Shown piece by piece: positions 17,263 through 60,723 of a DNA stretch of 64,000 nt. The position numbers were made by a program, and so were the translations under genes. This DNA comes from an uncultured Eubacteriales bacterium (lineage in GTDB: Bacteria > Bacillota > Clostridia > Christensenellales > Aristaeellaceae), in the NCBI GenBank assembly GCA_900316415.1, contig ONCV01000002.1:107211-171210 (forward strand). Direction: 5' to 3'. A model generated the notes under the pieces. It saw only the letters and a program-made list of their open reading frames with translations. It ran no database searches and was not told the DNA's origin. The number at the start of each line of letters is the position of its first letter. The stretch's first letter is position 1.

Positions 17263-17280
17263 GTCGTTCCCCCCGTCCGT

Positions 17281-18378: not shown

Positions 18379-18421
18379 GTCTCCGTCTCCTTCCGCGCAT
18401 CCCGGGTTCTCCGCGATGTTC

Positions 18422-20325: not shown

Positions 20326-20345
20326 CCCCGGAGCCTCCTCTGTCC

Positions 20346-40390: not shown

Positions 40391-40415
40391 TTCGCGGATC
40401 CTCCGGCCTCAGAAA

Positions 40416-41279
40416 TCAGAAGACATACAGGATCAGGATCATCGCCGCCAGGTACAGCCCGGTCAGCACCAGCAGCACCGGGTCGTGCAGGAGCACCTCC
40501 ACCGGATCCCCGTCCGACTTTCGCTCCACATTCAGGCTGTACTTCAGGGTAATCAGCAGCACGATCGGAACGGTGAAGATCAGATGATCGGTATGATAGG
40601 CAGCCCGGGTCGTCCCGTCCATGCTCCAGAGGGCGTAGAACACATGGGCCAGCGTGAGGCACATGCTCATGCTTCTGTCCAGGAAGGAGACGGGATAGGC
40701 GTTCAGCACTTCCCGGGTTTCTCCGCCGCCCATTCTCCGCAGCTCATTTCGCCGCTTTCCCAGCGCGAGATAGAAGGACAGGGCCATCACCGTCAGATAC
40801 ATCCAGTTGGAAATCTGAATGCCCGTAATCAGCGCACCGTAGACCATCCGGATCAGGAATCCGGATACCAGAATGGTGATGTCCACAATGGGATAGTTCT
40901 TCCAACCGAAGCTGTAGCCCAGGTTCAGCCCCAGATACAGGAGCAGCAGCGCCGTGGCCAGCGGCTGAAAGACGATTCCGTTCAGAATCATGGCGATTCC
41001 GAACAGCGCCGCCGCCAGGATCCGGGCGTTCCGCACGGAGATCTCCCCCGAGGCGATGGGCCGCCCGCATTTGACCGGATGCAGCCGGTCCTTCTCCCGG
41101 TCCTGTATGTCATTGATGATATAGATGACGGAAGAGATCAGGCAGAAGGCCAGGAAGGCCAGCAGACCGGGTCCGGTCCGATCCGGCTCAAACAGCTTTC
41201 CGCTGCAGGCCAGCGCCGCCAGTACCAGCAGGTTCTTGATATAGTGATGAACCCGCATCAGCCGCAGATAGGATTTCAC
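40416..41279 (-). CDS. UbiA-family decaprenyl-phosphate phosphoribosyltransferase-like protein
   Basis: R.HHYIKN, YIINDIQD...DRLHP.K..RPIASG, LK..PIVD-like WKNYPIVD, GKRR.EL, DP.E.LL.D. Confidence 0.85.
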   Translation of the reverse strand: MKSYLRLMRVHHYIKNLLVLAALACSGKLFEPDRTGPGLLAFLAFCLISSVIYIINDIQDREKDRLHPVKCGRPIASGEISVRNARILAAALFGIAMILNGIVFQPLATALLLLYLGLNLGYSFGWKNYPIVDITILVSGFLIRMVYGALITGIQISNWMYLTVMALSFYLALGKRRNELRRMGGGETREVLNAYPVSFLDRSMSMCLTLAHVFYALWSMDGTTRAAYHTDHLIFTVPIVLLITLKYSLNVERKSDGDPVEVLLHDPVLLVLTGLYLAAMILILYVF

Positions 41280-45295: not shown

Positions 45296-46804
45296 CTATG
45301 GAATATGGAATGTGATCCGGCTCCAGATCCGCGCCGGCGCGCCGGTATAGAAATCCGTATAGCTGAAGTCCTCCGGAACGATGAACAGAAGGAGCACCAT
45401 CAGCAGGCAGCCGAAGGCCGCCAGGCAGATTTTCCAGCTGCGCCGGGGGGATGGGCGCTGCGCGTACCAGACGCCGATTCCCAGGAAGGAACCCATGCTC
45501 AGCAGATACAGGACGTCCCCCTTGTATCGCTCCAGGATCACCGGAGACCAGAGCACCTGGAAGAAATTCGTCAGAAACACCGAGGCGATCAGGAAGGCCA
45601 GGAAGCCGTACAGTCCTTCTCTTTTCAGGCTCCTCCCGACGGATCCGCGCAGGGCCAGAAGGGAGAAGAACAGCAGCGGGCAGCAGGGAAAAACGCCGAT
45701 GCCCAGGGGAAGGAAGGGGAAGACCGGATCCAGCGCCGGAACCGCGAAGAGGGCATTCCAGGTCTGCACCAGAATCCGGACGAGATCCTGGAAGCCCTGG
45801 ATATGCCCGTACCGGCTCTGATCCGCCGTGGTCAGCTGATAGGCCTGCCCGAATTCAAAGGGGGATCCGAAGCGGGCGTAGTTATAGGCCATCAGCCCCG
45901 CCGCCACCAGCGCATAGGGCAGGGCGGCGGCAAGCAGCAGGCCGATCCGCCCCCGGGTGATCTTCTCCCTCTTCAGGAAGCGGAAGGCCATGGGAAGAAC
46001 CACCGCGTTCGCCAGGGCGAGGGGCGGCCTGCATCCGAAGGTTAGCGCCCCCAGCAGGGAGCCTCCCAGCGCCCAGCCCAGCACGGCCCGGTTCGGTTTT
46101 TTCTCCCGGAAGGCCCGGGAAAAGCAGAAAATGCTCCAGATCTCCAGCATCATTCCGCAGGCCACCGGCGTCTCATACAGGGTCGGAAATTTCGCCGGGA
46201 ACAGAACGGACAGCAGGGAGAACAGCACCAGCAGCGCGATCAGCATGCCCAGGGTCATCTGCGGAAAATACTTTTTCGCCAGGGAACGGAAGCAGGCCAG
46301 CAGCCCGATCAGGAAAGCCGCTGTGAAGAACTGCGTCGCGTGAACGGAAAGCAGCGGCTGCCCGGTCAGCAGCCGATAGGGCAGAAAAGCCAGAAAGACA
46401 GGCACGATGCCGAAGTACATATAGAAGCGTCCCTGATAAAACGCGTGATCCAGCGGATACTTGATATCCATCCCGTCCCGGAGCGCCGCATCGTAGGGAT
46501 TCTCCATTTCATACAGCCGGGGATCCGCGGTCACGTCCAGATCCAGCCGCCCCTGCAGAATGGATTCCGTCATCATTTCGTACTGACCGTTATGCAGGAT
46601 AATCTCACCGTTCCAGACGGGGGAAAGCGTCATCACGAAAACGGAGAGCACGATCAGAACCAGCAGGATGCCGATCAGCAGCGCATGATGCTTCCGCGTC
46701 AGGGATCCGACGGAAATCCGATGCAGCGCTGACTTCGGCCGGATCAGAAAAAGGCTGACGGCCAGGAAGGCCCAGAACGCCACTCCCTCCAGGATCTCCT
46801 TCAC
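45296..46804 (-). CDS. Polytopic membrane protein, putative GT-C
   Basis: QYE..ES..G.L..DP..ENPYD..R..DHA.Y.G.FYMYFG.VP, CRP, NYARFG.PFEFG..YQLT, ERY; paralogue of 59206-60723. Confidence 0.62.
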   Translation of the reverse strand: MKEILEGVAFWAFLAVSLFLIRPKSALHRISVGSLTRKHHALLIGILLVLIVLSVFVMTLSPVWNGEIILHNGQYEMMTESILQGRLDLDVTADPRLYEMENPYDAALRDGMDIKYPLDHAFYQGRFYMYFGIVPVFLAFLPYRLLTGQPLLSVHATQFFTAAFLIGLLACFRSLAKKYFPQMTLGMLIALLVLFSLLSVLFPAKFPTLYETPVACGMMLEIWSIFCFSRAFREKKPNRAVLGWALGGSLLGALTFGCRPPLALANAVVLPMAFRFLKREKITRGRIGLLLAAALPYALVAAGLMAYNYARFGSPFEFGQAYQLTTADQSRYGHIQGFQDLVRILVQTWNALFAVPALDPVFPFLPLGIGVFPCCPLLFFSLLALRGSVGRSLKREGLYGFLAFLIASVFLTNFFQVLWSPVILERYKGDVLYLLSMGSFLGIGVWYAQRPSPRRSWKICLAAFGCLLMVLLLFIVPEDFSYTDFYTGAPARIWSRITFHIP

Positions 46805-49672: not shown

Positions 49673-49701
49673 ATTATACCGCAGTTTTCAGGGAGTGTAA
49701 A
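49673..49701 (-). promoter_or_regulatory. sigmaA-type promoter
   Basis: TTTACA-17nt-TATAAT on the minus strand, just after the transaldolase stop. Confidence 0.78.
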
Positions 49702-49705
49702 GTTT

Positions 49706-50428
49706 TCACTCCCGCAGGATGGAGAAGCCCAGGCTCTTCGCGTCCCTCGCGAACATCTGCACCGTCTCCAGGGAATACTGCTCCAGGCTTTTTCCGAAGT
49801 CGCCCAGCTTGCCCAGCAGATCGTTGGTCACGGTAATGATGTCGCAGCCGCAGCGGTCCGCCTGCACGATGTTCAGCGTCTCCCGGGGAGAAGCCCAGAG
49901 GAGCTCCACGCCCTCCTTCGCATGGCAGATCTGGGCCGCGACCGTCATGATCGGTTCCGGATCCACGCCGGCATTGGCGATTCTGCCCGCGAAGACCGAC
50001 ACATAGTTATGGGTTCCCTCCGCAAAGGCATCCACGGCTTCCATCACCTGACGGATGGTGAAGACCGCCGTCACGTTCAGGTTGATTCCCTGCTTCGACA
50101 GCTGCCGGATCAGCGGGATGCTGCTCTCCCCCCTGGAATTGGTGATCGGAATCTTCACCATCACGTTCTTTCCCAGGGCGGAGAGCACCGCGGCCTCCTT
50201 CGCCATGGTCTCAAAGTCGTCCGAAAACACCTCCAGGGACAGGGACAGATCCGGAATGGCCTTCACCATCTCCCCGGCGAAGGCCACATAGTCCTTCACG
50301 CCCGCCTTCTTCATCAGCGTCGGATTGGTGGTAAAGCCCTTCACGATGCCCTTGGCGTATTCCGCCTTCATGGCCTCGCTGTCCGCGCCGTCGGCAAAAA
50401 TCTTGACTTTCAGATCGGATACGTTCAT
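49706..50428 (-). CDS. tal: Transaldolase (small TalC-type)
   Basis: IFADGA, GFTTNPTL, SLEV (Glu), MVKIP (Schiff-base Lys), SVFAGR (Phe), LWASPRE. Confidence 0.9.
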   Translation of the reverse strand: MNVSDLKVKIFADGADSEAMKAEYAKGIVKGFTTNPTLMKKAGVKDYVAFAGEMVKAIPDLSLSLEVFSDDFETMAKEAAVLSALGKNVMVKIPITNSRGESSIPLIRQLSKQGINLNVTAVFTIRQVMEAVDAFAEGTHNYVSVFAGRIANAGVDPEPIMTVAAQICHAKEGVELLWASPRETLNIVQADRCGCDIITVTNDLLGKLGDFGKSLEQYSLETVQMFARDAKSLGFSILRE

Positions 50429-50430
50429 GT

Positions 50431-51006
50431 TCAGTCCTCCTCACATTTCAGCGCATTCACCATCAGATGCCACACGACCCCCTGCCAGCCCTCCGCGTGG
50501 GGGGTGATCCGGGTTTCGTCCACCACGGGAACCAGCACGCACGCGTCCGCCGTCTGCTTCGTGTATCCGCCGTTCCGGGACACGATGCCGATAATGGAAG
50601 CACCCTTCTCCCGGGCCAGCTTCAGGGCATTGACGATGTTCAGGGAAGCGGTTTCGCTCCCGCCGCCCACGGACAGCACCATCAGCGCATCCTTCTCCGA
50701 CAGATGGCTGACCCGCAGCCAGGCCTCAAAGGTCGTCTCCCAGCCCTCGTCATTGGTCCGGGCGGTGAGCTCGGAAACATTGTCCGTCGGCGCATAGGTC
50801 TCGATGCCGCCGATCTTCCGGAAATCGTTCACCGCGTGGGAGGCGTTCGCCGCGCTTCCGCCCACCCCCAGGATGAACAGCCGGCCTTCCCGCCGCTTCG
50901 TTTCCCGCAGGATTTCAATCGCCCGTCCGATCTCTTCCTGGGAAATCTTCTCACAGATCTCCCGCGTCTGTTCCAGATAGGTCCGGATGTACATTGCCGT
51001 CTTCAT
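50431..51006 (-). CDS. SIS-domain phosphosugar isomerase (GmhA-like)
   Basis: LGVGGSAANASHAVND, TARTNDEG, LSVGGG, PH.EG.Q. Confidence 0.85.
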   Translation of the reverse strand: MKTAMYIRTYLEQTREICEKISQEEIGRAIEILRETKRREGRLFILGVGGSAANASHAVNDFRKIGGIETYAPTDNVSELTARTNDEGWETTFEAWLRVSHLSEKDALMVLSVGGGSETASLNIVNALKLAREKGASIIGIVSRNGGYTKQTADACVLVPVVDETRITPHAEGWQGVVWHLMVNALKCEED

Positions 51007-51027
51007 CAGTCTTCTCTCCTTTGCCGT

Positions 51028-51906
51028 TTATCTCCCGGGTTTGTCCCAGTTGTCTCCCCGATCCTGGGGAATGATTCTCCGCAGGGTGTAGATATCCCCG
51101 TTCCGCATCTTTTCGACCCGCTCCGGCGTGAAATGTTCCCAGTCATCCCAGACGGCGGAGATCAGCCGGCCCGTGATTCCGTCGCTTTCCGGGGAGGCCA
51201 GGAAGGCGCAGAGCCGCGCTGCGGTTTCGGGCGGTACGCCGCCCTTTTCCTTCCGTTCCAGCGCCTTCGCGTATTCCGCCTTTCCGACGGCATCCTCGCC
51301 GGCCTGAAGCGTTTCCTCCAGCATCCGGCCGTTCATCGCTCCCGGCGCAATGGCGTTGATTTCAATGTGATCATCCCGCGTTTCCCGGGCAATGGTTTCC
51401 GTCAGGCGAACCAGTCCGGTCTTCGCGACGGCGTAGGCGCTGTAATTCTCCCGGGGGCCGGTGGCGCCGCCGCCCGACAGATTGACGATTTTTCCCCCGT
51501 CCTGCTTCTTCATCAGGGGAAGCACCTCATGAATCAGATGGGCCGGGGTCAGCAGATCCGTGGCCAGCGTCCGCTTCCACTGCTCCCAGGGGTTCTCCTC
51601 CATCGGTCCGATGGGTCCCTGCACCGCCGCGTTGTTCACGAGGATATCGATCCGCCCCATCCGGGCCAGCGCCTGCCGGATCATTTCCTCCGCGGTGCTT
51701 TCCTCCGCCAGGTCCCCCGCAAAGGAGAACACCGCCTGTTCCGGCTCCCGCCTCTCCCGGCGCAGCGCTTCACAGACCTTTTCCAGATCGGCCGCATTCC
51801 GCGCGCAAAGGAAAACGCATGCCCCCTGCGCAACGAATTCCCGGGCGATGGCTTCTCCCAGCCCCCGGCTCGCGCCGGTAATCACCGCGCATTTATTCCG
51901 CAGCAT
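51028..51906 (-). CDS. Short-chain dehydrogenase/reductase (SDR)
   Basis: TGASRGLG, VNNAA, NLSGGG, YAVAK (YxxxK), IAPG; start at the ATG after GAAGGAGG. Confidence 0.9.
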   Translation of the reverse strand: MLRNKCAVITGASRGLGEAIAREFVAQGACVFLCARNAADLEKVCEALRRERREPEQAVFSFAGDLAEESTAEEMIRQALARMGRIDILVNNAAVQGPIGPMEENPWEQWKRTLATDLLTPAHLIHEVLPLMKKQDGGKIVNLSGGGATGPRENYSAYAVAKTGLVRLTETIARETRDDHIEINAIAPGAMNGRMLEETLQAGEDAVGKAEYAKALERKEKGGVPPETAARLCAFLASPESDGITGRLISAVWDDWEHFTPERVEKMRNGDIYTLRRIIPQDRGDNWDKPGR

Positions 51907-53215
51907 TCGGAACCTCCTTCGCAAACTCCATCAGATTCCCCGCGATCCTTTCCGGCTTCCGGCATCCGCACATCATGCAAAGATCACACTTGTACCTTCC
52001 CAGGAAGGCGGTATGCACGCCCGCCGCCTGTCCGCAGAGCACATCCGTGGCGGAATCCCCCACCATCCAGGACCGCTCCCGGTCGATCCGGTATTTCTCC
52101 GTCAGCCGCTCAATCAGCCCCGGCTTCGGCTTCCGGCAGGAGCAGTCGCGGATCAGCCAGGTTTCCCGGGTTCGGGCGGAGGCTTTTCCGTAGTGCGGGC
52201 ACATCTCCACGTCGGTGATTTCAACCCCGGCCTTCCGCATTTCCTCCACAAGGCGCCGGTTGATCTCGCAGAGGGTGGTATAGCGGGTCTTGCCCTTGGC
52301 CGCGGCCGGCTGATTGGTGACCACAAAGAGCAGATATCCCTTCTCCTGCAGCAGCTTCAGCGCTTCCGGAGCCTCCGGCATCAGCCGGAACTGATCCCAT
52401 TTCAGCGGGGAGTCCAGCTGATCAATGTCATCGTTCCAGACGATTTCATTGATCACGCCGTCCCGGTCCAGAAAGACCGCAGGGCGCGGCTGTCCCCAGC
52501 GCCGGGCGGCATAGGCCCGAAACTCCGCCAGGGAGCCCGGGGTTCCGATCTCATAAAACCGGCGCTCCGTCTCGCAGCAGGCCAGCTTCCCCTCCCTGGA
52601 AAGCCGCTGCTGAAGATCGCTCAGGTCAAACGCCTCCCGCGGTTCCTCTTCGAAGAGACTCCGGCTGAACGCGCCGATCCCGTAGTCAATGAAATCCATT
52701 TCCGGGGACGGATTCCGCTTGTCGTACCGCAGGATCTCCCCGTCCCGGCAAAGGACATTGCTCCGGTCGAAACGGCCCTGGTTCCGCATCACGGTCATCA
52801 GGGCGGGCTTTCCCGCCGCAAGCCCCTCCCGGAATCGGACAAGCACCTCCGGATAATGAACGTCCATGAAGGAATCGCCATAGATCAGGAGGAAGGTTTC
52901 CTCCAACAGGGGAAGCGCCTTCCGGATGGCCCCCCCCGTGCCCAGCAGCTTTTCTCCGTCGCGGGAATACCGGATTTCCACTCCGAAGCGGCTGCCGTCG
53001 CCGTAGTATTCCTCAATCTGCTCCGCCCGGTAGCCCAGGCAGAACAGGAAGCGGCGGAAGCCCGCCTGCCTCATGATCTCCAGCTGATAGCTGAAGAAGG
53101 GCTTCCCTTCCACCTCCATAAGAGGCTTGGGACAGTCCCGGGTGCAGGCGCCGAGCCGGGTGCCCAGTCCGCCCATGAGCACGACCACCTGCGTGTTTTC
53201 GCACAGTGCTTCCAT
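51893..53215 (-). CDS. Fusion: HddC-like sugar-1-P nucleotidyltransferase + GmhB-like sugar bisphosphate phosphatase
   Basis: N-half GGLGTRL..PKPL, LLGTGGA, YGDS; C-half FLDRDGV, VTNQ, CPH, C.CRKPKPG, MVGDS.TD. Confidence 0.88.
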   Translation of the reverse strand: MEALCENTQVVVLMGGLGTRLGACTRDCPKPLMEVEGKPFFSYQLEIMRQAGFRRFLFCLGYRAEQIEEYYGDGSRFGVEIRYSRDGEKLLGTGGAIRKALPLLEETFLLIYGDSFMDVHYPEVLVRFREGLAAGKPALMTVMRNQGRFDRSNVLCRDGEILRYDKRNPSPEMDFIDYGIGAFSRSLFEEEPREAFDLSDLQQRLSREGKLACCETERRFYEIGTPGSLAEFRAYAARRWGQPRPAVFLDRDGVINEIVWNDDIDQLDSPLKWDQFRLMPEAPEALKLLQEKGYLLFVVTNQPAAAKGKTRYTTLCEINRRLVEEMRKAGVEITDVEMCPHYGKASARTRETWLIRDCSCRKPKPGLIERLTEKYRIDRERSWMVGDSATDVLCGQAAGVHTAFLGRYKCDLCMMCGCRKPERIAGNLMEFAKEVPNAAE

Positions 53216-53217
53216 GC

Positions 53218-54195
53218 TCAGACCACCACCCGCGTTCCCTGCGGATCAAAGCGGAAACGGACTTCCATCAGGCCCGCCTTTTTCATCGCGTGGCGCAGCT
53301 GCTGCTTGTTCCGGCAATAGAACATGAGGAATCCACCGCCGCCGGCCCCGATCAGCTTTCCGCCCAGGGCACCGTTCTTCAGCGCGTACTCGTACCATTC
53401 ATCGATCTGCGGATTGCTCATGCCGCCGGAGCGGCGCTTCTTGTGCTCCCAGTGCACATTCATGATGTCCGCGAAGTCCTCCAGCCGGCCTTCCTCCAGG
53501 GCTTTTTTGCTGTCATAGCCCATCTGCTTCACGTCATGCAGGTTCTGAATCATGTCCGAGTCCTTTTTCCGGCTCTTCTGATCCTGATCCACCAGGATGC
53601 TGGACGCGGAATGGGAGTACCCGGTGAAGAACATGGCCAGGTTGTCCTCCAGATTATACAGATCCTCATCGCTGATATGCAGGGGCTCCACCCAGACATA
53701 GCCATCCTTCCGGAAGGTCATGCAGGTGAGGCCGCCGTAGGCGGCAATATACTGATCCTGCTTGCCGATATGCTCGCCCAGCTTCTCGATCTCCACCGTG
53801 CAGGCCTCTTCCGCCAGGGTCCGGGTGCTGACGATGTCCCCCTTGTAGATATGCAGTGCCTTCAGCAGCGCGGTCGTGAAGCTTCCGGAGGAGCCCAGTC
53901 CGGTTCCCGCCGGAATGTCCGCCAGGGAGGTGATTTCGATGGCCGGGCTCTTCAGATCCAGCAGGTTCAGGGCCTCCCGGATAATGGGATGCTGGATCTC
54001 CCCGTTGGAGGTCACATGCTCGATCTTCGAATACTTCAGCCAGAGCTCATTGACGAAGTTCCGGTTCAGGGTAATATAGACATACTTGTCAATGGCCGCA
54101 GAAATCAGGAACCCTTCATGCTCCGAATAATAGGAGGCCAGATCCGTTCCGCCCCCGCCCAGGGAAATCCGCAGCGGGCTTTTGGTAATGATCAT
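53218..54195 (-). CDS. GHMP kinase, HddA-like sugar-phosphate kinase
   Basis: PLRISLGGGGTD, PAGTGLGSSG, GKQDQY, GGKLIGAGGGGF. Confidence 0.9.
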   Translation of the reverse strand: MIITKSPLRISLGGGGTDLASYYSEHEGFLISAAIDKYVYITLNRNFVNELWLKYSKIEHVTSNGEIQHPIIREALNLLDLKSPAIEITSLADIPAGTGLGSSGSFTTALLKALHIYKGDIVSTRTLAEEACTVEIEKLGEHIGKQDQYIAAYGGLTCMTFRKDGYVWVEPLHISDEDLYNLEDNLAMFFTGYSHSASSILVDQDQKSRKKDSDMIQNLHDVKQMGYDSKKALEEGRLEDFADIMNVHWEHKKRRSGGMSNPQIDEWYEYALKNGALGGKLIGAGGGGFLMFYCRNKQQLRHAMKKAGLMEVRFRFDPQGTRVVV

Positions 54196-55193
54196 CTGTT
54201 CCGTCCCTCCTTCGCATAAATCGCGTCCACCGCGCGAAGCGCCTCATAGGCGTCCGTAATGTCCCCCATGGAAAGCCCCTGCCCGGACTCCACGGCCCGG
54301 GTGATTTCCCGGAATTCCAGCTCCCAGGAGTTCTCCCCCCGCGGGAATTCATAGATGGTCGTTTCCGGCGGCCCCATCTCAGGCAGCATCTGATAGTAGC
54401 TCAGCCGCTCCACCCCGTAGCTTCCGCCCAGGCCGTCAATCGCCAGCTTCGCGCCTCGGCAGTAAATCTCGAAGGAGAACATGTTCTTCCATTCCGTACA
54501 GCTCACCTGCAGCCAGGCCGCCCGGCCGTCCTCCTTCCGCAGGGCGATGAATCCGTTGTCATCCACGGGCATATCCCAGAAATAGGTTCCGGTAAACCCG
54601 TCCACCCGCTGAAAGTCCCCCATGAACCACCGGGACAGGTCGATCAGGTGAACGCCCTGATCAATCAGCTCGCCGCCTCCGGAGAGCTCCGGATTTGCCC
54701 GCCATTCCCGGTCATATCCCACGCGTCCGCCATGGCCGTACCGGCCGCGGATAAACATGACCGGGCCGATCTGATCCGGCCGGGAATCGATAAGTTCCCG
54801 CGCCTTCAGCAGCGCGGGGTGGTACCGGTGATTGAATCCCACCTTCACCAGCACCCCCTGCTCCCGGGCCTTTTCGATAATCGGCAGCAGTTCCGCCGCG
54901 GAGCGGGCCGCGGGCTTCTCCACGATCACATGCTTTCCGTGGGAAACGGCGAAGAGCGTAATCGGCGCCAGCATCTTCACGACGGTGGCCACCACGATCA
55001 GGTCGGCGCCGCTGTGCAGGATCAGATCCTCATAGCTGTCCGTCAGGTAAACGTCCTTCAGCCCGAACCGCTCCGCCAGGCGCTCCGCCGCGGCCCGGTT
55101 CACATCGCACAGGCCGGTGATCGTGTGCGGCGCGTGCACCGCCGCGGCGCGCTTTCCGCCGATCAGGCCGCAGCCGATAATGCCTACCTTCAT
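54192..55193 (-). CDS. Gfo/Idh/MocA family oxidoreductase
   Basis: GIIGCG.IG, HV.VEKP, VGFNHRYHP, GGGELIDQGVH.ID; start trimmed to MKVGII. Confidence 0.9.
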   Translation of the reverse strand: MKVGIIGCGLIGGKRAAAVHAPHTITGLCDVNRAAAERLAERFGLKDVYLTDSYEDLILHSGADLIVVATVVKMLAPITLFAVSHGKHVIVEKPAARSAAELLPIIEKAREQGVLVKVGFNHRYHPALLKARELIDSRPDQIGPVMFIRGRYGHGGRVGYDREWRANPELSGGGELIDQGVHLIDLSRWFMGDFQRVDGFTGTYFWDMPVDDNGFIALRKEDGRAAWLQVSCTEWKNMFSFEIYCRGAKLAIDGLGGSYGVERLSYYQMLPEMGPPETTIYEFPRGENSWELEFREITRAVESGQGLSMGDITDAYEALRAVDAIYAKEGRNR

Positions 55194-56146
55194 TTTCTCG
55201 CCTCCAGAAGCCAGGGATTCTCCGTCAGATAGTCCACCGTCCGCTCGACCGCCTGCCGGATGGTCAGCCGGGGTTTCCAGCCGGTGGACCGGATCTTTGC
55301 CGTATCCAGGTAGATGAAGGGGCTGTCCCCCACCCATCCCCGTTTTCCGCCGGTGAAGGTGAATTCCGGCTGCAGGCCCATCCGGGCGGCAATCCAGGAC
55401 GCGGAATCCCGGACCTCACAGTATTCATCCGTTCCCAGGTTGTAGATATGGACCCCCGGATCGTCCTGCCCGATCACGGTCAGGATCGCGTCCAGGCAGT
55501 CCCCGATATAGAGATAGGATTTCCGCTGGTGCCCGTCTCCGAGGATCTGCAGGGAGGCAGGGTTTTCCTTCAGCCGTTTGACAAAATCAAACACGTGTCC
55601 GTGGGGATAGCGCTCCCCCAGCAGGGAAACGAAGCGGAAAATATATCCCGTGAAGCCGTATCCCCCGCAATAGGAAGTAATCATGCCTTCCCCATAGGCC
55701 TTGGACGCCGCGTACAGCGAGGTCTGCACCGGGAAGGGGCAGGTTTCCGGCGTGGGGAACACCTCCGGTTCCCCGTAGACGGAGCCGGTGGAGGAAAAGG
55801 CGATCCGGCGGACGCCCGCCGCCCGCATGGCCTCCAGCACCTGGAAGGTTCCCCGGGCATTCTGCTCAAACACAAAATCCGGATGATCCAGATTGTTCCG
55901 GATGTCCGCGTTGGCTGCGAAATGGAAGACGAAATCGCACCCCGCCATGGCCCGCGTCAGCGCCGGCCGGTCCAGGATATCCCCCTCCGCCAGCCGGAAC
56001 CGTTCGTTCTCCATGGCGGAGGCCAGGAACCGCCGCATGCCCGTGGTGAAATTGTCATAGACCACCACTTCGTGTCCGTCCCGCAGCAGCCGGTCCGCCA
56101 TGTTGGAGCCGACGAAACCGGCCCCGCCCGTGATCAGAAATCTCAT
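55190..56146 (-). CDS. NAD-dependent epimerase/dehydratase (extended SDR)
   Basis: TGGAGFVGS, FHFAA, FSST.SVYG, YAASK, GDG.Q.K.Y.Y..D. Confidence 0.92.
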   Translation of the reverse strand: MRFLITGGAGFVGSNMADRLLRDGHEVVVYDNFTTGMRRFLASAMENERFRLAEGDILDRPALTRAMAGCDFVFHFAANADIRNNLDHPDFVFEQNARGTFQVLEAMRAAGVRRIAFSSTGSVYGEPEVFPTPETCPFPVQTSLYAASKAYGEGMITSYCGGYGFTGYIFRFVSLLGERYPHGHVFDFVKRLKENPASLQILGDGHQRKSYLYIGDCLDAILTVIGQDDPGVHIYNLGTDEYCEVRDSASWIAARMGLQPEFTFTGGKRGWVGDSPFIYLDTAKIRSTGWKPRLTIRQAVERTVDYLTENPWLLEARK

Positions 56147-56161
56147 GTCCTTCCCTCTCCC

Positions 56162-57475
56162 TCACTGTGGCATCCTGTACAGATAACGGTACCGGATGAA
56201 GCTTTTGATCCAGAGAATCGGATCCTGGATCATCCGAACCTTTTTGCCTTCCTTCACGCCCCGGGAAACATAGTTGATCGGGATCTCCCGGGGAATATAT
56301 CCCTTCCGGATCAGCTTGATGATGATCTCCCAGTCAATCTCAAAGCGGTTTCCGTCAAATTCCAGGCCATACAGGCACTCCCTCCGGAACAGCTTGAACA
56401 TGGTGAAGGGGTCCTTCAGCTTCGTATGGCAGCCCCGGTTGATCAGTCCCGTAAAGAAGATCTGTCCCAGGTTCATCACGAACGCCCGCAGTTTCTCGCC
56501 GCTCCCGAACTTCCGCATGTGCCAGTCCCCGGTATGCCGGGAGCCCAGGACAAAGGCCTCCTGATCGTGCACCAGGGGATACAGCAGCTTGTCATAATCG
56601 TTGATATCGTATTCCAGATCCCCGTCCTGAATCGTGATGAAGTCCCCGGTGGCTTCCCGGAAGCCGTTCCGGACGGCATGCCCCTTCCCCCGGGGCTTGT
56701 CCTCGTAGATCGCCCGCACCTCCGGATGCTCGGCGGCAAATCGGGCGACCTCCTCCCGGGTGCCGTCGCTGGAATTGCTCTCGATGATGATCAGTTCCTT
56801 CCGCAGGCCCAGGCCGGACAGATCCTTCCCGTACACGGCGTCCAGGAGAAAACGGACCGTATTTTTTTCGTTATAGACCGGAATGATGAAGGAAAGAACC
56901 TTTTCCTTCCGCACTTCCTTTCGGCTGCAGCGGACGAAAACGCCGTCCGGATTCGCCTCCCGGATGGTGATCTCTCCGAAGCCGCATTTGCAGAGCAGGT
57001 TCTCCAGCGTTTTCCGGGAAAAAAACTGAAGCCGTTTCTGTTCGAACGCATCCCAGGACTGCTTCGCATGCCGGGCATGCGAACTGTCCGTCACCGGCAC
57101 AAACAGAAAAAGCTTCCCTTCCGGTTTCAGTTTTGCATGGGCGCTGCGCAGCAGACGCTCCGGGTCATTCACCATGTCCAGGCAGTCCAGCAGCATGCTT
57201 TCCAGCGACCCGTCCGCTTCCCGCTCAAGCTCCTCCCCGGAGGAAAAGGTCGGAACCGCCGCAGGCTCCCCGGCATCCCCCACCCGCGTCCGGAAGGACG
57301 AAAAATCCTCCGCGCGATAAAGCGGCTGAAGCTCCATCAGCCGGGTGTTCTGGGGATTGGAAAACATGTGCCCGCATTCCGCGCAGGCGGAAATCACCCT
57401 TCCCGCGGCGACAAACCGATACTCCAGGCGGGCGGAAGAACATACAGGGCAAGACTGAACCAATAACTCCTCCAT
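56162..57475 (-). CDS. Fusion: Zn-ribbon/methyltransferase-like remnant + DPM-synthase-like GT2
   Basis: N-terminal CPVC..CAEC and DP..L...LKPEG.L..VP; C-terminal IPVYNE, GKG.AV..G, QDGDLEYD, VLGSR, FEID.E. Confidence 0.8.
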   Translation of the reverse strand: MEELLVQSCPVCSSARLEYRFVAAGRVISACAECGHMFSNPQNTRLMELQPLYRAEDFSSFRTRVGDAGEPAAVPTFSSGEELEREADGSLESMLLDCLDMVNDPERLLRSAHAKLKPEGKLFLFVPVTDSSHARHAKQSWDAFEQKRLQFFSRKTLENLLCKCGFGEITIREANPDGVFVRCSRKEVRKEKVLSFIIPVYNEKNTVRFLLDAVYGKDLSGLGLRKELIIIESNSSDGTREEVARFAAEHPEVRAIYEDKPRGKGHAVRNGFREATGDFITIQDGDLEYDINDYDKLLYPLVHDQEAFVLGSRHTGDWHMRKFGSGEKLRAFVMNLGQIFFTGLINRGCHTKLKDPFTMFKLFRRECLYGLEFDGNRFEIDWEIIIKLIRKGYIPREIPINYVSRGVKEGKKVRMIQDPILWIKSFIRYRYLYRMPQ

Positions 57476-57556
57476 GACGGCTGTCCTTCTTCCCTCCGTA
57501 ATCCCGGCTGCGCTGCCTGAAGGCAATGCGCCCCTGATTCTTGCACGTACGGAAAC

Positions 57557-57585
57557 ATGATATCATATTTCATCCGGGATGTCCA
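57557..57585 (-). promoter_or_regulatory. sigmaA-type promoter with extended -10 heading the 8-gene sugar cassette
   Basis: TGGACA-17nt-TATCAT with TG; the -10 lies within the palindrome ATGATATCAT. Confidence 0.6.
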
Positions 57586-57622
57586 ATGGCGATTGTCTGT
57601 GTGCCGGTCCGGGTGCCGTTGT

Positions 57623-59185
57623 CTATGCGTCCGTCCGGGTGCACCGAACCAGAACCCCCTTGCCCTGATAGATTTCCTCCGTCTCATAGCCCATCTGCCG
57701 GAAGGCGGCGAGGAACTCACTGTAGCTTCCGACAAAATTGCTGCTGGTGCCGAGATAGTAGAATTCATTCTCCTCAAAGATTCCGGTATCGCTCAGGCGG
57801 GAAATCACCTCCCCTGCGCTGGTGAAATTCATCCAGTCGCCGGAGGTCACCAGCTGCTGCAGATACTCCTCCTTCCAGGCGGGGTCATGCATCAGATAAT
57901 ACACAAAGATGACCTCCGAATGGGAGTGGACGATCGTTCTCTTTTCGTAAGCCTTCTCCGCCATCCAGGCGGTTTCCGCTTCCCGGACCTGATCCTTGGG
58001 CTCCATCCGGGTCATCATCCGGATTCCCGATGCGCAGTACGGCACCAGCAGCAGCGCGGCCAGCGCCAGCGCAATCCGGCGTGTCCGGGTCGTTCTCCTT
58101 CCGGCTTCCTGCAGCAGCAGGAAGGTCCCGCCGATTCCAAACAGGAGCAGCAGGGGAAGATAGAACAGGACATACCTGCCGCTCATATTCTCGGTTCCCA
58201 GCGTGCCGTCCCACACATTATATCCGTAGAAGGAGCAGGCGACCGCCGCAAAGAGCACCACCCAGATGCAGGCGCACACCGCTAGCAGGCAGAGCAGCAG
58301 GGACTTCATCCTTCCCCGGGGCATCAGCAGCGCCGCGGCGGCGGCCCCCGTCAGGAACAGAATCCAGATGGCTCCACCGATTTCCCCTCCGGCAGCGCGG
58401 CAGAGAAGGTGCCAGAATTCCCAGACGAAATCCCGGAGCGGTCCGCCGTGGAAAAAGACCGGCGAATGGCTCACCTCCATCGTTCCCTGATGCTGGATCT
58501 GCGGAATCAGGAAGAAGATCACCAGGGGGATCGCCAGCAGCACCGCTCCGCCGGAAAAAAGCAGCATCTGCTTTCTCTTCGTCCCGTCCTTCCACATCCG
58601 GATCATCAGCGCCAGATACAGGGGCACCACCGCGAATGCCGCGCCGTACTGGCTGTAGACGGACAGGCAGGCGCAGAGAAAGAAGCCCGCCAGGGAGCCC
58701 GTCCCTTTCTCCAGAAATGCCTTCACGAAGAAGAACAGGGTCCAGCACAGAAAGCAAAGCACCAGGTTGTACTCCGCGCATTCCAGGGCATATTCCATCA
58801 CCTGTCCCGTAAACAGGTAGGCCGCGGTTCCCGCCGCCGCCCAGAGCGGATCCGTCATTTTCCGGAAGGCCAGAAACAGGCCGATCCCGCCCGCCAGCGT
58901 GGTCAGAATGCCCGCCAGCCGGAAGCCGAACTCGGAATCAAACGCGAGCAGCCACAGATGCATCAGCACGTTGTACAGCGGCGGCTGAAAGGTCTCCGTG
59001 ATCCGTTCGTACATATTCTGCGTCTCGCTCCAACCGGGCACCGGACCGGATACCACGCTGGAATAAAAGTACTCCACGCCCTCGTCATACCACAGGCCGG
59101 AACGGGTGGCATTCAGGCACAGCAGCACCAGCGCGGCCAGCAGCACAATCGCCGCCGGAACCCATTTAACCGCCTTTGCTTTCAT
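57623..59185 (-). CDS. GT-C (GT39/ArnT-like) polytopic membrane glycosyltransferase
   Basis: LWYDE after TM1, QPPLY..L.H.W, E...Y, GRY. Confidence 0.72.
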   Translation of the reverse strand: MKAKAVKWVPAAIVLLAALVLLCLNATRSGLWYDEGVEYFYSSVVSGPVPGWSETQNMYERITETFQPPLYNVLMHLWLLAFDSEFGFRLAGILTTLAGGIGLFLAFRKMTDPLWAAAGTAAYLFTGQVMEYALECAEYNLVLCFLCWTLFFFVKAFLEKGTGSLAGFFLCACLSVYSQYGAAFAVVPLYLALMIRMWKDGTKRKQMLLFSGGAVLLAIPLVIFFLIPQIQHQGTMEVSHSPVFFHGGPLRDFVWEFWHLLCRAAGGEIGGAIWILFLTGAAAAALLMPRGRMKSLLLCLLAVCACIWVVLFAAVACSFYGYNVWDGTLGTENMSGRYVLFYLPLLLLFGIGGTFLLLQEAGRRTTRTRRIALALAALLLVPYCASGIRMMTRMEPKDQVREAETAWMAEKAYEKRTIVHSHSEVIFVYYLMHDPAWKEEYLQQLVTSGDWMNFTSAGEVISRLSDTGIFEENEFYYLGTSSNFVGSYSEFLAAFRQMGYETEEIYQGKGVLVRCTRTDA

Positions 59186-59205: not shown

Positions 59206-60723
59206 CTACCAGTTGAGGTTAAAGGTGATTCTGCTCCAGATCCAGTCCGTGGTTCCCTGGAAGTAGGAGGTATAGCTGAAGTCGTCCGGCACCAGAAAAA
59301 GCAGCACGACCAGCGCAATGCAGAAGCAGGCCGCCAGGCACGCCTTCCAGCTGGCGGCAGCCGGCTTCGCCTGCCTGGAGAACCATTCCCCGATCCCCAT
59401 GAACGCCCCGATGCTCAGAAGATAGAGCACATCGCTCTTGTGCCGCTCCACGATCAGCGGAACCCACATGGCCTGAAACAGGACCACGATGACCACCGCA
59501 GCCACCAGCACCGTCTGAAAGCCCCCCATATCCTTTTCCCGGGAAATTCTTCTCCCCGCGGGGCTCAGGCAGGTAAACGCCGCGAACAGCGCAGGGCAGC
59601 AGCTGACCGCGCCGATTCCGATCGGAAGGAACGGGAAGGCCGTCTCCAGCCGGGGAACGGCGAACAGGGTGTTCCAGGTGACCACCAGAACCCGGACCAG
59701 GTCATTCAGGCCGTGAATGCTTCCCAGGCTGGTCTGGTCATCATTCGTCAGCTGATAACGCTGCCCGAATTCAAAGGGGTTTTCGAACCTTGCATAATTG
59801 TACCACATCAGGCCTGCCGCCACCACCAGGTAGGGGGAAGCCGCCCACAGAAGCTGCCCGGCCCGCCGAAGAGTAAGCTTCTTCCCCTTCATGTACTGAA
59901 TCACCATCGGAAGGACGACCAGATTGGCCAGGGCCAGGGGCGGTCTGCAGCCGAAGGTGAGGGCGCCGCAAAGGGATCCCCAGAACGCCCAGCGGATCGC
60001 GGACTGTTCAGTCCTTTTCTCCCAGACTGCCCGGGAGAAAAAGTACAGGCTCCATACCTCCAGCATCATGCCGCAGGCAATGGGGGTCTGATACAGCGTG
60101 GGAAACTTGGTCACATAAACCGTGGACAGCATGGAAAACAGAATGATCAGCAGGATCAGAAGCCCGATGGTCATCTGCGGAAACTTTTTCCGGGCGAGCC
60201 AGAGGAAATAGACCGCCAGCCCGATCATGAACACCGCGGCGAAAAGCTGGCTCGCGTGTACGGAGGGAAGCGCCTGCCCTGTCAGGAGCCGATAGGGCAG
60301 GAATGCGAGGAAAACCGGCACCACACCGAAATACATATAGAACCGGCCGTGATAGTAGGCGTGATCCAGCAGGTACGGAACCTCCTCCCGGTCCCTCAGC
60401 GCCGTATCATAGGGGTTCTCCATGGCCAGCAGCTTCGGATCCGGCTCCATATCAAAATCCAGCCGATGGTTCAGGAATGATTCCGTGATCCGCTCGTATT
60501 CATCCATGTAATCCACCATGGAACCATTCCACATGGGGGAGAGCATCGAGCAGAAGAGCATCACGCAGATCAGCACCGCCACCGTCAGCACGATCCAGAT
60601 CCGGTGTTTTCCCCGGATCTCCGCCACCGCAGTCCGGTGAAGGGCCGCCTTCGGCCGGATCAGGAACAGGCCTGCTCCGATTCCTCCCCAGAACAGAATC
60701 CCTGTCAGTATACTTTTAATCAT
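59206..60723 (-). CDS. Polytopic membrane protein, putative GT-C
   Basis: DEYE..ES, DP..MENPYD, DHAYY.GRFYMYFG.VP, NYARF..PFEFG..YQLT; paralogue of 45296-46804. Confidence 0.62.
   Translation of the reverse strand: MIKSILTGILFWGGIGAGLFLIRPKAALHRTAVAEIRGKHRIWIVLTVAVLICVMLFCSMLSPMWNGSMVDYMDEYERITESFLNHRLDFDMEPDPKLLAMENPYDTALRDREEVPYLLDHAYYHGRFYMYFGVVPVFLAFLPYRLLTGQALPSVHASQLFAAVFMIGLAVYFLWLARKKFPQMTIGLLILLIILFSMLSTVYVTKFPTLYQTPIACGMMLEVWSLYFFSRAVWEKRTEQSAIRWAFWGSLCGALTFGCRPPLALANLVVLPMVIQYMKGKKLTLRRAGQLLWAASPYLVVAAGLMWYNYARFENPFEFGQRYQLTNDDQTSLGSIHGLNDLVRVLVVTWNTLFAVPRLETAFPFLPIGIGAVSCCPALFAAFTCLSPAGRRISREKDMGGFQTVLVAAVVIVVLFQAMWVPLIVERHKSDVLYLLSIGAFMGIGEWFSRQAKPAAASWKACLAACFCIALVVLLFLVPDDFSYTSYFQGTTDWIWSRITFNLNW

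Follow-up and report, generated by a model that had tools for sequence, protein, structure and literature searches.

The locus raises the question of which sugar its enzymes would make, and whether the transaldolase (TAL) at its end is a step of that pathway. Within the window (the whole stretch of DNA that was analysed, 64,000 nucleotides), eight close-packed genes occupy 49706-57475 on the minus strand. The features of this cassette and its edges are as follows.

57623..59185, minus strand: PMT_2-type GT-C membrane glycosyltransferase (PF13231), directly upstream of the cassette
57557..57585, minus strand: sigma-70-like promoter candidate upstream of the GT2 gene (TGGACA-17-TATCAT, extended -10 TG, 10/12 hexamer matches)
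56162-57475, minus strand: GT2 of the DPM-synthase/ArnC/AglJ type, putative polyprenyl-phosphate sugar synthase (PF00535 at residues 212-385 of a 454-aa ORF)
55190-56146, minus strand: NAD epimerase, an extended SDR of the GDP-sugar 4-epimerase (GDP-Gal4E) subgroup (Pfam/NCBIfam and PDB matches)
54192-55193, minus strand: Gfo/Idh/MocA NAD(P) sugar oxidoreductase (Gfo), 333 aa (PF01408/PF22725)
53218-54195, minus strand: GHMP anomeric sugar-phosphate kinase, HddA-like (NF049969 HddA, 169 bits against a cut-off of 600)
51893-53215, minus strand: NTP_transferase and HAD-IIIA GmhB-like fusion (PF00483 and HAD families)
51028-51906, minus strand: classical SDR (adh_short), 292 aa, with a C-terminal extension (PF00106/PF13561)
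50431-51006, minus strand: SIS_2-domain ketose-/aldose-phosphate isomerase, distantly GmhA-like (Pfam SIS_2; family signature HAVNDFRK)
49706-50428, minus strand: transaldolase of the TIGR02134 family (Pfam TAL_FSA; TIGR02134 356.8 bits against a cut-off of 282)
49673..49701, minus strand: sigma-70-like promoter candidate for the next membrane-protein gene (TTTACA-17-TATAAT, 11/12 hexamer matches)

All eight open reading frames lie on the minus strand in the order given by the first-pass annotation, from GT2 to TAL, and their Pfam and NCBIfam assignments agree with it. The genes had been described as overlapping or abutting, and the junctions within the cassette do measure -14 to +21 nt, with a GGAGG-like ribosome-binding site before each ATG. 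The description of the cassette as promoter-bounded held in part. Both promoter-like sites exist, but a scan of the region returned three such sites against 2.7 +/- 1.7 expected by chance, and the one support for these two candidates is that they fall in the two larger gaps between genes (147 and 94 nt). The scan found no terminator-like site on the minus strand in either gap, and one metatranscriptome contig, 97% identical, covers 57419-57612 and crosses the -35 box of the candidate upstream of GT2. Promoter bounding is therefore only plausible, and transcription may read through into the cassette from the PMT_2 gene upstream. The reading we favour is that the eight genes constitute one operon with a self-contained pathway, which would start from sugar phosphates of central metabolism and carry a GDP-activated higher-carbon aldose to a lipid carrier.

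Enzyme families of the cassette

The TAL gene follows the SIS gene after 2 nt. Aligned to the Thermoplasma TAL 3S0C, the window TAL has the Asp (FADGAD), Glu (SLEV), Schiff-base Lys (VKIP), Thr (NVTAVF) and Phe/Arg (SVFAGR), and these catalytic residues are invariant in 83 family members, bearing out the earlier assignment of true-transaldolase Glu and Phe residues. The SIS enzyme belongs to a family of 299 clusters (50% identity) at E <= 1e-30. Its best PDB match is C. jejuni GmhA 1TK9 (E = 4e-12), and it scores 57 bits against the TIGR00441 GmhA cut-off of 209. His57, Asp61, Glu172 and His180 are invariant; the Zn site is His/Asp/Glu/His, whereas that of GmhA is His/Glu/Gln/His, and the phosphate loop is remodelled or inserted (SVGGG...S.N).

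The kinase matches 3K85, WcbL 4USK and 4N3O in the PDB, and its homologues in related loci of many phyla share a median identity of 62% (37-73%). In the fusion, a sugar-1-phosphate nucleotidyltransferase (NT; residues about 1-238) precedes a HAD phosphatase (about 239-440); outside Firmicutes the two are separate genes. The fusion scored 121.7 bits for GmhB (cut-off 178), 94.7 for HddC (300) and 114.7 for MurU (250), with PDB matches to MurU 4Y7T, HddC 5XHW and GmhB 2GMW. All four canonical heptose equivalog models (GmhA, HddA, GmhB and HddC) were missed by wide margins.

Over its full length the epimerase matches 3EHE (E = 8e-80) and PhGal4E_1 8RDG (E = 7e-75). It keeps Y-x3-K, the His182 equivalent and the RGW-GD motif, and has STGSVYG, not the dehydratase motif TDEVYG. 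The closest solved relatives of Gfo are sugar C3 dehydrogenases, namely DgpA 7XR9 and levoglucosan dehydrogenase 6A3F. The SDR met no NCBIfam equivalog cut-off; Gfo and SDR occur together in 28 of the 32 Gfo-positive related loci, and extended cassettes keep the SDR gene adjoining the Gfo gene.

From its ATG start the GT2 is 437 aa long and is called alike in two independent assemblies. Its N-terminus combines a Zn-ribbon with a degenerate Methyltransf_23 half-domain (PF13489, residues 113-183 of the 454-aa ORF), and a GT2 of the same fused architecture is found at locus L124. GT2 homologues come after TAL in loci L010, L057, L100, L124, L168 and L171. The best NCBIfam match of the GT2 is AglJ, and its best PDB matches are 5MLZ (dolichol-P-mannose synthase) and 9HWJ (ArnC). 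Around the cassette extends a 55-kb island with teichoic-type genes and genes for glycosyltransferases, GT-C-like membrane proteins and a polyprenyl-P phosphoribosyltransferase; GtrII, DUF2142 and DUF6020 membrane proteins are also encoded in the window, and no GtrA homologue was detected there. Relatives of the module elsewhere add GtrA-type (GtrA_DPMS_TM) and GtrB-type genes. Because the GT2 is related to DPM synthase and ArnC, adjoins a PMT_2 GT-C gene and is accompanied in relatives by GtrA/GtrB-type genes, the lipid-carrier role proposed for it fits. The PMT_2 enzyme is a candidate user of the lipid-linked sugar.

Distribution of the module

The main new result is that the cassette is a widespread orthologous module and no local oddity: an uncharacterised gene set of this rumen Firmicute is conserved in many bacterial phyla and in methanogenic archaea. 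A literature search found no publication on it. TAL, SIS, kinase, phosphatase and NT recur as a set in Lachnospiraceae, Solirubrobacterales, Rhizobium, Lawsonia, cyanobacteria, Verrucomicrobiota, Bacteroidota, Acidobacteriota and Methanomicrobiales (metagenome-assembled genomes, MAGs, with loci L057, L072, L076 and L078), frequently with an epimerase, Gfo, SDR or UDP-glucose-dehydrogenase-like (UGDH-like) gene added. In other genomes the module is set among housekeeping genes, with GT2 and GtrA alongside.

The core set, with or without these additions, was present in 38 of 70 long genome loci, all of them found through TAL. Among 30 long metagenome loci entered via SIS, any TAL was found in 25, HAD in 27, kinase in 25, NT in 22, Gfo in 16 and SDR in 13. 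TAL lay within 1.5 kb of SIS in 25 of these 30, once as a different subfamily, and five (about one in six) had no TAL within 8 kb. The starts of TAL and SIS were no more than 1.5 kb apart in 31 of 38 genome loci and in all 24 metagenome loci, and dozens of loci in unrelated phyla, differing in the order of their genes, show this adjacency. Because TAL accompanies SIS in 25 of the 30 SIS-entered loci, it is a core step and no passenger. The neighbourhood survey that the first-pass annotation had suggested thus finds TAL to be an integral, conserved part of the pathway across many phyla, which argues against its simpler alternative that TAL only boosts the supply of sedoheptulose-7-P (S7P). At locus L118 a TAL of another subfamily (26% identity) occupies the same position, in what looks from the sequence like a non-orthologous replacement.

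Among the carriers, rhizobia and cyanobacteria have a complete pentose-phosphate pathway. The Methanomicrobiales model species M. hungatei has no transketolase, and archaea generally have no erythrose-4-P (E4P)/S7P route (PMC5241800). If the MAGs resemble M. hungatei, the Methanomicrobiales carriers would have fructose-6-P and ribose-5-P but no E4P, since an order without transketolase would not make it.

Proposed pathway and its product

The sequences show the gene families, their close packing, the conserved module and the integral TAL; each chemical step, like the nucleotide, the number of carbons and the lipid carrier, is inferred. TAL would move a C3 unit from fructose-6-P (or S7P) onto an aldose phosphate, and the SIS enzyme would convert the resulting ketose phosphate to an aldose phosphate. 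The GHMP kinase would phosphorylate this at C1, the HAD domain would take off the distal phosphate, and the fused NT would yield an NDP-sugar, probably a GDP-sugar. The GDP-Gal4E-type epimerase would invert C4, the Gfo and SDR pair would remodel another centre via oxidation then reduction, and the DPM-synthase-like GT2 would place the sugar on polyprenyl phosphate for neighbouring GT-C enzymes acting on the cell-wall glycan. In our preferred version ribose-5-P would be the acceptor, and an octulose-8-P intermediate would lead to GDP-octose by the logic of LmbR/N/P/K/O.

We regard GDP-octose as the product with evenly divided confidence. The leaning towards it comes from the integral TAL, the lincosamide-like gene content and the presence of the module in an archaeal order reported to have no transketolase, the last argument drawing on M. 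hungatei and general archaeal statements, not on the MAGs themselves. The only characterised pathway with a dedicated TAL, SIS isomerase, kinase, phosphatase and guanylyltransferase leads to GDP-octose (PMC5854111, PMC4351081, PMC7014725). The four missed heptose models, the difference of the SIS Zn site from that of GmhA and the placing of the epimerase in the GDP-sugar 4-epimerase subgroup also count for this reading. Against it, SIS, kinase, phosphatase and NT all find their best database matches among heptose enzymes, and the likeness to octose enzymes is at family level only. Cassette TALs formed no clade separate from stand-alone TALs of the same family, with no specificity-determining positions or sequence specialisation, and there are the five SIS loci without a nearby TAL. 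To our knowledge a linear aldo-octose has not been reported in any bacterial or archaeal glycan, and a literature search on octoses found none.

A close rival, possible although we put the balance somewhat against it, has the same architecture with S7P as substrate and a GDP-heptose of non-manno configuration, such as D-glycero-D-galacto-heptose, as product. It accounts for best matches to GmhA, HddA, GmhB and HddC, for the unspecialised TAL and for a GDP-sugar 4-epimerase in the core set; SIS loci without TAL are expected if S7P from general metabolism is enough. D-glycero-D-galacto-heptose has been found in Eubacterium saburreum (Lachnospiraceae), in N-glycans of the archaeon Thermoplasma, and in Chromobacterium and Pectinatus (PMC11407970), a patchy spread that resembles that of the cassette. 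We found no description of its pathway in the literature. However, TAL is kept in 83% of loci, even through non-orthologous replacement, an extra reversible TAL should add little S7P where one already exists, and all four heptose cut-offs were missed. We know of no characterised GDP-/ADP-heptose cluster with a transaldolase. The module also occurs in an archaeal order reported to have no transketolase and hence no E4P (PMC5241800).

It is quite improbable that TAL is a housekeeping pentose-phosphate enzyme standing at the operon end by chance, with no specific part. TIGR02134 TALs do occur outside any such cassette in Streptococcus, Mammaliicoccus, Sporolactobacillus, Carnobacterium and Treponema, often with PTS genes as neighbours, and on a closed Methanoregulaceae contig one copy stands by itself, adjoining phosphoglycerate mutase. 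Chance placement is countered by the TAL-SIS adjacency across unrelated phyla, by a TAL as frequent in SIS loci as kinase and NT, and by the substituted subfamily at L118. That the cassette belongs to a lincosamide-like secondary-metabolite cluster and not to a cell-envelope system is scarcely credible, for although its gene content resembles lmbK-L-M-N-Z-P-O-R (PMC4351081, PMC7014725), no aminotransferase, NRPS-like, thiol-conjugation or resistance genes occur in it or its conserved relatives, the 55-kb island surrounds it, and elsewhere the module keeps company with housekeeping genes, GT2 and GtrA.

Comparison with known systems

The lincosamide sugar sub-cluster lmbK-L-M-N-Z-P-O-S-R encodes a phosphatase, dehydrogenase, epimerase, isomerase, oxidoreductase, kinase, nucleotidyltransferase, aminotransferase and transaldolase, and the likeness first claimed for the cassette holds in gene content, at family level only (PMC4351081, PMC7014725). 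In Streptomyces lincolnensis and S. caelestis, LmbR (transaldolase), LmbN (isomerase), LmbP (kinase), LmbK (phosphatase) and LmbO (guanylyltransferase) are followed by LmbM (epimerase), LmbL (dehydrogenase) and LmbZ (oxidoreductase). Compared by family, both systems are overlapping co-directional blocks of the same enzymes with a dedicated TAL, and both plausibly tailor at the GDP-sugar level with a GalE-like epimerase and oxidoreductases. Unlike the lincosamide module, the cassette lacks an LmbS-type aminotransferase and any amino-acid or thiol chemistry, is coupled to a polyprenyl-P-type GT2 and to GT-C enzymes, and occurs at cell-envelope loci across many phyla and in archaea. In the window it includes an additional classical SDR but not the UGDH-like dehydrogenase borne by many relatives.

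With the canonical heptose pathway (GmhA/HddA/GmhB/HddC) the cassette shares step order, superfamilies and nearest solved structures. It differs in its scores (57/209, 169/600, 122/178 and 95/300 bits to equivalog cut-off), its integral TAL, its fused NT-phosphatase and its altered SIS Zn site and phosphate loop. Where C. jejuni uses a C4-dehydrogenase, cupin epimerase and C4-reductase (PMC10680097), the cassette would tailor with a GDP-Gal4E-type 4-epimerase and a Gfo/SDR pair. The epimerase matches the GDP-Gal4E subgroup (Pyrococcus horikoshii PhGal4E_1, Archaeoglobus 3EHE, Pyrobaculum 3AW9) over the full length and shares its catalytic motifs, although where PhGal4E_1 has Pro80 the window enzyme has Ala. 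Members of that subgroup are described as promiscuous, with no natural substrate named in the part of the source consulted (PMC12171764), whereas the window epimerase stands in a defined pathway context. The lipid-linked monosaccharide systems (GtrA/GtrB/GtrV, ArnC/ArnT, Dol-P-Man synthase/PMT and archaeal AglJ) are resembled in that a DPM-synthase/ArnC/AglJ-like GT2 adjoins a PMT_2 GT-C, but by inspection C-terminal membrane helices are absent from the window GT2, which bears a degenerate methyltransferase-like N-terminal domain.

Layout and transcription of the cassette

The first-pass annotation had placed eight genes between 49706 and 57585, and ORF reading together with Pfam and NCBIfam searches confirmed both the genes, all on the minus strand, and their order. 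The same ATG-start genes are called in independent assemblies of the organism, a Firmicute of 60-63% G+C from the guts of sheep, goats and cattle whose nearest genome in the transaldolase scan described below is a goat-ileum 'Clostridia bacterium' MAG. A GGAGG-type ribosome site is present at every start, and intergene gaps run from -14 to +21 nt, with only 2 nt between the isomerase and transaldolase genes.

Genes of the cassette in order (minus strand, 49706-57475), with Pfam and NCBIfam families and protein lengths
GT2 glycosyltransferase, 437 aa
Extended-SDR epimerase, 318 aa
Gfo/Idh/MocA oxidoreductase, 333 aa
GHMP kinase, 325 aa
Nucleotidyltransferase-phosphatase fusion (NTP_transferase and HAD-IIIA), 440 aa
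Classical SDR, 292 aa
SIS isomerase (SIS_2), 191 aa
Transaldolase (TAL_FSA), 240 aa

The annotation had also described the cassette as bounded by promoters. The hexamers are present at 57585..57557 and 49701..49673, but the number of promoter-like sites in the region is what chance would give (3 in 9.5 kb, against 2.7 +/- 1.7 expected); both candidates do fall in intergenic gaps, of which the region has just two of real size, and this is no more than suggestive. Because neither gap contains a minus-strand terminator-like site, and because a rumen/bovine-gut metatranscriptome contig (97% identical, covering 57419-57612) runs across the start of the GT2 gene and the putative -35 box, the cassette may also be transcribed by read-through from the PMT_2 gene upstream. 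This contig suggests either such read-through or DNA carry-over. Only five short metatranscriptome contigs were recovered in all, too sparse a set to define an operon transcript.

A widespread module with an integral transaldolase

The module recurs in many lineages, whether its gene neighbourhoods are surveyed from the transaldolase or from the SIS isomerase, and our main new result is that the cassette is a widespread, conserved module. For the transaldolase survey one genome per species was scanned with a transaldolase alignment, and for the isomerase survey metagenome contigs were matched with an SIS alignment; in each case the best 80 of more than 580 matches were kept. Gene content was read by tblastn with the window proteins, using pragmatic identity thresholds to call orthologues, and loci of at least 9 kb were counted. 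On this basis the transaldolase survey yielded an SIS orthologue in 38 of 70 loci, and these 38 also carry the HAD phosphatase (36), the kinase (34), the nucleotidyltransferase (32) and an epimerase of the GDP-sugar 4-epimerase (GDP-Gal4E) type (24). The Gfo-type and SDR genes are each found in 16, and occur together in 15.

Carriers in the transaldolase survey
Lachnospiraceae, Eubacterium, Oscillospiraceae
Cyanobacteria (Phormidium tenue, Drouetiella)
Verrucomicrobiota, Lentisphaerae, Bacteroidota, Ignavibacteria, Acidobacteriota
Alphaproteobacteria, Holosporaceae, Spirochaetia, Brevinematales, Melainabacteria, Margulisbacteria
Archaea: Methanoregula and Methanospirillum MAGs

Individual carriers
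Lawsonia intracellularis (pig pathogen) plasmid 3: annotated by PGAP as SIS domain protein, HAD-IIIA hydrolase, transaldolase, nucleotide sugar dehydrogenase, SDR, Gfo/Idh/MocA, 'galactokinase' and nucleotidyltransferase
Rhizobium jaguaris chromid: epimerase, UDP-glucose-dehydrogenase-like protein (UGDH), SDR, Gfo, kinase, nucleotidyltransferase, SIS, HAD, transaldolase
Solirubrobacterales closed contig: SIS, HAD, transaldolase, GT2, Gfo, UGDH, SDR, epimerase, kinase, nucleotidyltransferase, GtrA

The GT2 of Lawsonia plasmid 3 is 51% identical to that of the window. On one side of the Solirubrobacterales module is a gene for an aminoacyl-tRNA synthetase with class I tRNA-synt_1 domains, and on the other a gene for a lyase of the fumarase class. 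When an actinobacterial-looking SIS was used as a query, Solirubrobacterales MAGs were returned and Streptomyces was not among the matches listed. Carriers span rumen and gut Clostridia, soil Actinomycetota and Acidobacteriota, rhizobia, cyanobacteria and methanogens. Homologue lists examined for named cultured carriers of known glycan chemistry gave MAG names only; Lawsonia and Rhizobium came from plasmid and chromid records. We know of no published glycan structure from Lawsonia or Rhizobium that bears on the cassette.

Across related loci, median identity to the window protein is 58% for the isomerase (range 45-80%) and 62% for the kinase (37-73%). About one third of the loci with a kinase have a copy that shares only 35-55% identity with the window protein, which suggests a second GHMP type. 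Clustered at 50% identity, the isomerase family (E <= 1e-30) falls into 299 groups; at the same E-value a database clustered at 90% identity holds more than 7,900 such proteins among the best 8,000 scored candidates. All-against-all clustering of neighbouring ORFs revealed no further universally conserved gene; it yielded only GtrB-like or methyltransferase-fused GT2s, a second epimerase type, the UGDH-like dehydrogenase, GtrA, LPG_synthase_TM proteins and occasional methyltransferases. Conserved neighbours that might reveal the product (aminotransferases, dehydratases, ribose-5-P enzymes) were sought and none was found. Abundant and widespread as the module is, its proteins bear only generic database names, such as 'SIS domain-containing protein' or 'galactokinase', and our literature search for it, or for a transaldolase-linked heptose or octose glycan cluster, retrieved no description.

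The transaldolase is integral to the module. It is present in 25 of the 30 loci of the isomerase survey (HAD 27, kinase 25, nucleotidyltransferase 22), and in all 24 that bear an orthologous copy its start lies within 1.5 kb of that of the isomerase. In the related locus L118 the cassette position (9905-10690, plus strand) is taken by a transaldolase of another subfamily, 26% identical to that of the window with the Glu, Lys and Phe signature kept. This looks like a non-orthologous replacement, which would indicate selection for transaldolase activity.

The window protein is a bona fide TIGR02134 member (356.8 bits, cut-off 281.95), and aligned to the Thermoplasma transaldolase it has the catalytic Asp, the Glu of SLEV, the Schiff-base Lys of VKIP, the Thr, and the Phe and Arg of SVFAGR. 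Together these uphold its earlier assignment as a true transaldolase rather than a fructose-6-P aldolase. Solo TIGR02134 proteins, typically beside PTS/BglG-type genes, are found in Streptococcus, Mammaliicoccus, Sporolactobacillus, Carnobacterium and Treponema; no alignment column separates them from the cassette-linked proteins, and in a neighbour-joining tree the two interleave with no separate cassette clade. For these reasons the cassette enzyme appears by sequence to be an ordinary transaldolase, the special point being its fixed coupling to the isomerase.

Two settings of the solo genes were also recorded. In several Bacilli loci (L022, L027, L040, L044 and others) the gene adjoins a PTS IIB/IIC pair and a BglG-like regulator, which suggests that lactic acid bacteria use the family in catabolism. 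Another solo copy lies beside a cofactor-independent phosphoglycerate mutase on a 2.4-Mb Methanoregulaceae contig (L070, 9995-10711, plus strand); as far as we know archaea are generally said to lack transaldolase, so its presence there was unexpected.

Enzyme relationships and the carbon number of the product

The nearest solved structures to the sugar-phosphate enzymes are GmhA, heptokinases, MurU/HddC and GmhB (E-values 1e-12 to 1e-49). These enzymes are GDP-heptose-like, yet every one scores below the corresponding equivalog threshold by a wide margin: 57.1 bits for the isomerase against GmhA (TIGR00441, cut-off 209.45), 169 for the kinase against HddA (NF049969, 600), 121.7 for the HAD part against GmhB (NF006506, 178) and 94.7 for the nucleotidyltransferase part against HddC (NF049965, 300). 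The HAD part does pass HAD-IIIA and histidinol-phosphatase-type domain models, and the kinase scores 134-170 bits against heptokinases in the PDB. At the active site the isomerase has His57/Asp61/Glu172/His180 where GmhA has His/Glu/Gln/His, so that the Glu and Gln of the Zn site are exchanged for Asp and Glu; in the phosphate loop STSGNS gives way to SVGGG(S/N)-insert-S-x-N. As judged from weak structure-database alignments, the identity of the cassette isomerase and kinase to canonical GmhA and HddA appears much lower than that within the module. The WcbL structure, with mannose as its sole ligand, was uninformative as a guide to 7-phosphate contacts in the kinase.

The epimerase aligns over its full length with Archaeoglobus fulgidus 3EHE (E = 8e-80) and Pyrococcus horikoshii PhGal4E_1 (8RDG, E = 7e-75). 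It keeps the Tyr-x3-Lys pair, the equivalent of His182 and the RGW-GD motif, has Ala in place of Pro80 of PhGal4E_1, and has no 4,6-dehydratase Asp-Glu pair. The GDP-Gal4E subgroup was recently defined, and its description assigns the Trp of the motif to GDP stacking (PMC12171764). By its full-length similarity and these residues the window protein is a bona fide member, and this kinship gives the strongest indication that the nucleotide is GDP and that C4 is inverted. Among solved structures the Gfo protein stands closest to sugar C3 dehydrogenases; no informative relative of the classical SDR was found.

Weighing the arguments for each product, we regard the case for GDP-octose as evenly poised, with GDP-heptose a close but somewhat less probable rival. 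To our knowledge no characterised heptose cluster includes a transaldolase, which counts for octose, as does the finding that the isomerase and kinase form distinct orthologous groups with altered active-site loops. A second, reversible transaldolase should add little sedoheptulose-7-P (S7P) where one already exists, yet the rhizobial and cyanobacterial cassettes keep theirs. In the lincosamide pathway LmbR transfers a C3 unit from fructose-6-P (F6P) or S7P onto ribose-5-P, and LmbN isomerises the octulose-8-P; this also favours octose as the only characterised route that joins a dedicated transaldolase to an SIS isomerase, an anomeric kinase, a phosphatase and a guanylyltransferase (PMC5854111, PMC7014725, PMC4351081). 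The presence of the cassette in Methanomicrobiales MAGs argues in the same direction: Methanospirillum hungatei has no transketolase, and the erythrose-4-P (E4P)/S7P route is missing from archaea in general (PMC5241800), so that in this lineage, if M. hungatei and archaea generally are a guide, F6P and ribose-5-P would be on hand as transaldolase substrates and E4P would not.

For GDP-heptose, the best matches of the cassette enzymes are heptose enzymes, the transaldolase is unspecialised and is missing from one locus in six, and no prokaryotic glycan is known to us to contain a linear aldo-octose. D-glycero-D-galacto-heptose, by comparison, is known from Eubacterium saburreum (Lachnospiraceae), Thermoplasma, Chromobacterium and Pectinatus (PMC11407970). 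It is the very sugar that would result if a gluco-forming isomerase acted ahead of a GDP-sugar 4-epimerase. A hexose bisphosphate route was rejected since F6P requires no dedicated transaldolase, and an antibiotic cluster was rejected for its wrong gene context.

Were the product an octose, no pathway outside antibiotic biosynthesis would have been seen before this one to make an eight-carbon aldose, and the cassette would point to an unrecognised class of surface sugars; were it a heptose, the cassette would probably account for the making of non-manno heptoses, D-glycero-D-galacto-heptose among them, for which a pathway is missing. In both cases it provides a transaldolase-coupled isomerase family, a natural context for 'promiscuous' GDP-sugar 4-epimerases, a genetic marker for an unusual envelope sugar and a defined, testable enzyme set. 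A wider proposal, to which we give slightly less than even credence, builds on the octose: that a primary-metabolism GDP-octose pathway extends across Bacteria and methanogenic Archaea, that aldo-octoses delivered via polyprenyl-phosphate are overlooked components of envelope glycans, and that the octose module of Streptomyces lincosamide clusters was recruited from this ancient envelope pathway.

Proposed sugar delivery and comparison with known systems

The GT2 gene is the first of the operon, with the PMT_2 (GT-C) gene directly upstream. Its product matches Pyrococcus dolichol-P-mannose synthase (5MLZ, 63 bits), ArnC and AglJ best, all under equivalog cut-offs, and has no obvious membrane helices. 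The first ~200 residues comprise a CxxC...CxxC ribbon and half of a Methyltransf_23 domain. Within 56900-57475 (minus strand), encoding the N-terminal ~190 aa, the Zn-ribbon (CPVC...CAEC) is followed by the C-terminal half only of this domain, in which SAM motif I could not be recognised. The identical fusion architecture is present at L124, a distant metagenome locus, and in a Methanoregula locus (L057) an intact Methyltransf_23 gene sits between the HAD and transaldolase genes.

Other features of the window
9861-12446, minus strand: radical SAM/SPASM protein and a 517-aa FAD amine-oxidase-like protein (782 bits to an NCBIfam 'hypothetical protein' equivalog), both adjoining a DUF2142 membrane protein
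12975-15423: DnaB_2- and DnaI-type replication genes
16567-21111, minus strand: GT2 gene, DegT/EryC1 aminotransferase, unassigned 484-aa ORF and FdtA (WxcM-like) protein
36391-38145, minus strand: CotH kinase-family protein with CHB_HEX_C and Fn3-associated domains, amid glycan genes
39830-41279, minus strand: UbiA-family protein, passing the decaprenyl-phosphate phosphoribosyltransferase equivalog (228.8 against 207 bits), and adjacent HAD-IB phosphatase gene
45296-46804 and 59206-60723, minus strand: two ~500-aa polytopic membrane proteins flanking the cassette, 57% identical to each other, no significant Pfam match
Surrounding 55 kb: further GT-C-like proteins (DUF2142 twice, DUF6020, GtrII), several GtrB-like GT2s and one CDP-glycerol-type transferase

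No GtrA homologue was detected in the window; in relatives, GtrA, a GtrB-like GT2 or a methyltransferase-fused GT2 adjoins the module. Given these neighbours and the PMT_2/GT-C genes of the window, the most economical reading is that the GT2 would transfer the sugar to polyprenyl phosphate for use by GT-C enzymes outside the membrane. The flanking ~500-aa paralogues may be GT-C-like transferases or polymerases. In two very distant carriers, Lawsonia plasmid 3 (L171) and the Methanoregula locus L057, an LPG_synthase_TM membrane protein directly follows the transaldolase/GT2 genes and may be an extra component of some versions of the system, such as a flippase or acceptor-side factor. The genes at 16567-21111 look like ones serving a 3-amino-3,6-dideoxyhexose, hence a second unusual sugar in the island. 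The UbiA/HAD-IB pair resembles the mycobacterial DPPR synthase and phosphatase, but its setting is the cell-wall island of a Firmicute, with many GT-C-like proteins.

We rate the cassette as an NDP-higher-carbon-sugar pathway with a built-in transaldolase step, probably coupled to lipid-linked glycan modification. The lincosamide-like content proposed in the first-pass annotation held at the family level: transaldolase, SIS isomerase, GHMP-type kinase, HAD phosphatase, nucleotidyltransferase, GalE-like epimerase and Gfo-type oxidoreductase lie in one block (lmb functions and order from PMC4351081, PMC7014725). Compared by family, the lmbK-L-M-N-Z-P-O-S-R block equals the extended cassette in content, save for the aminotransferase. 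Unlike the lincosamide clusters, the window cassette has no LmbS-type aminotransferase and no lincosamide condensation or resistance context; neither the cassette nor the conserved genes around 68 related loci include an aminotransferase, and the window has a single DegT gene (17281-18378), ~32 kb from the cassette and close to the FdtA-like gene. The GDP-heptose pathway, for its part, draws on housekeeping S7P with no transaldolase in its cluster, whereas the module includes one in most isomerase-centred loci, and the cassette proteins fall below all four of its equivalog thresholds (GmhA, HddA, GmhB, HddC). The cassette would work like the early lincosamide sugar pathway, which it resembles at the family level, and like the GDP-heptose pathway, and by the tests run is a member of neither.
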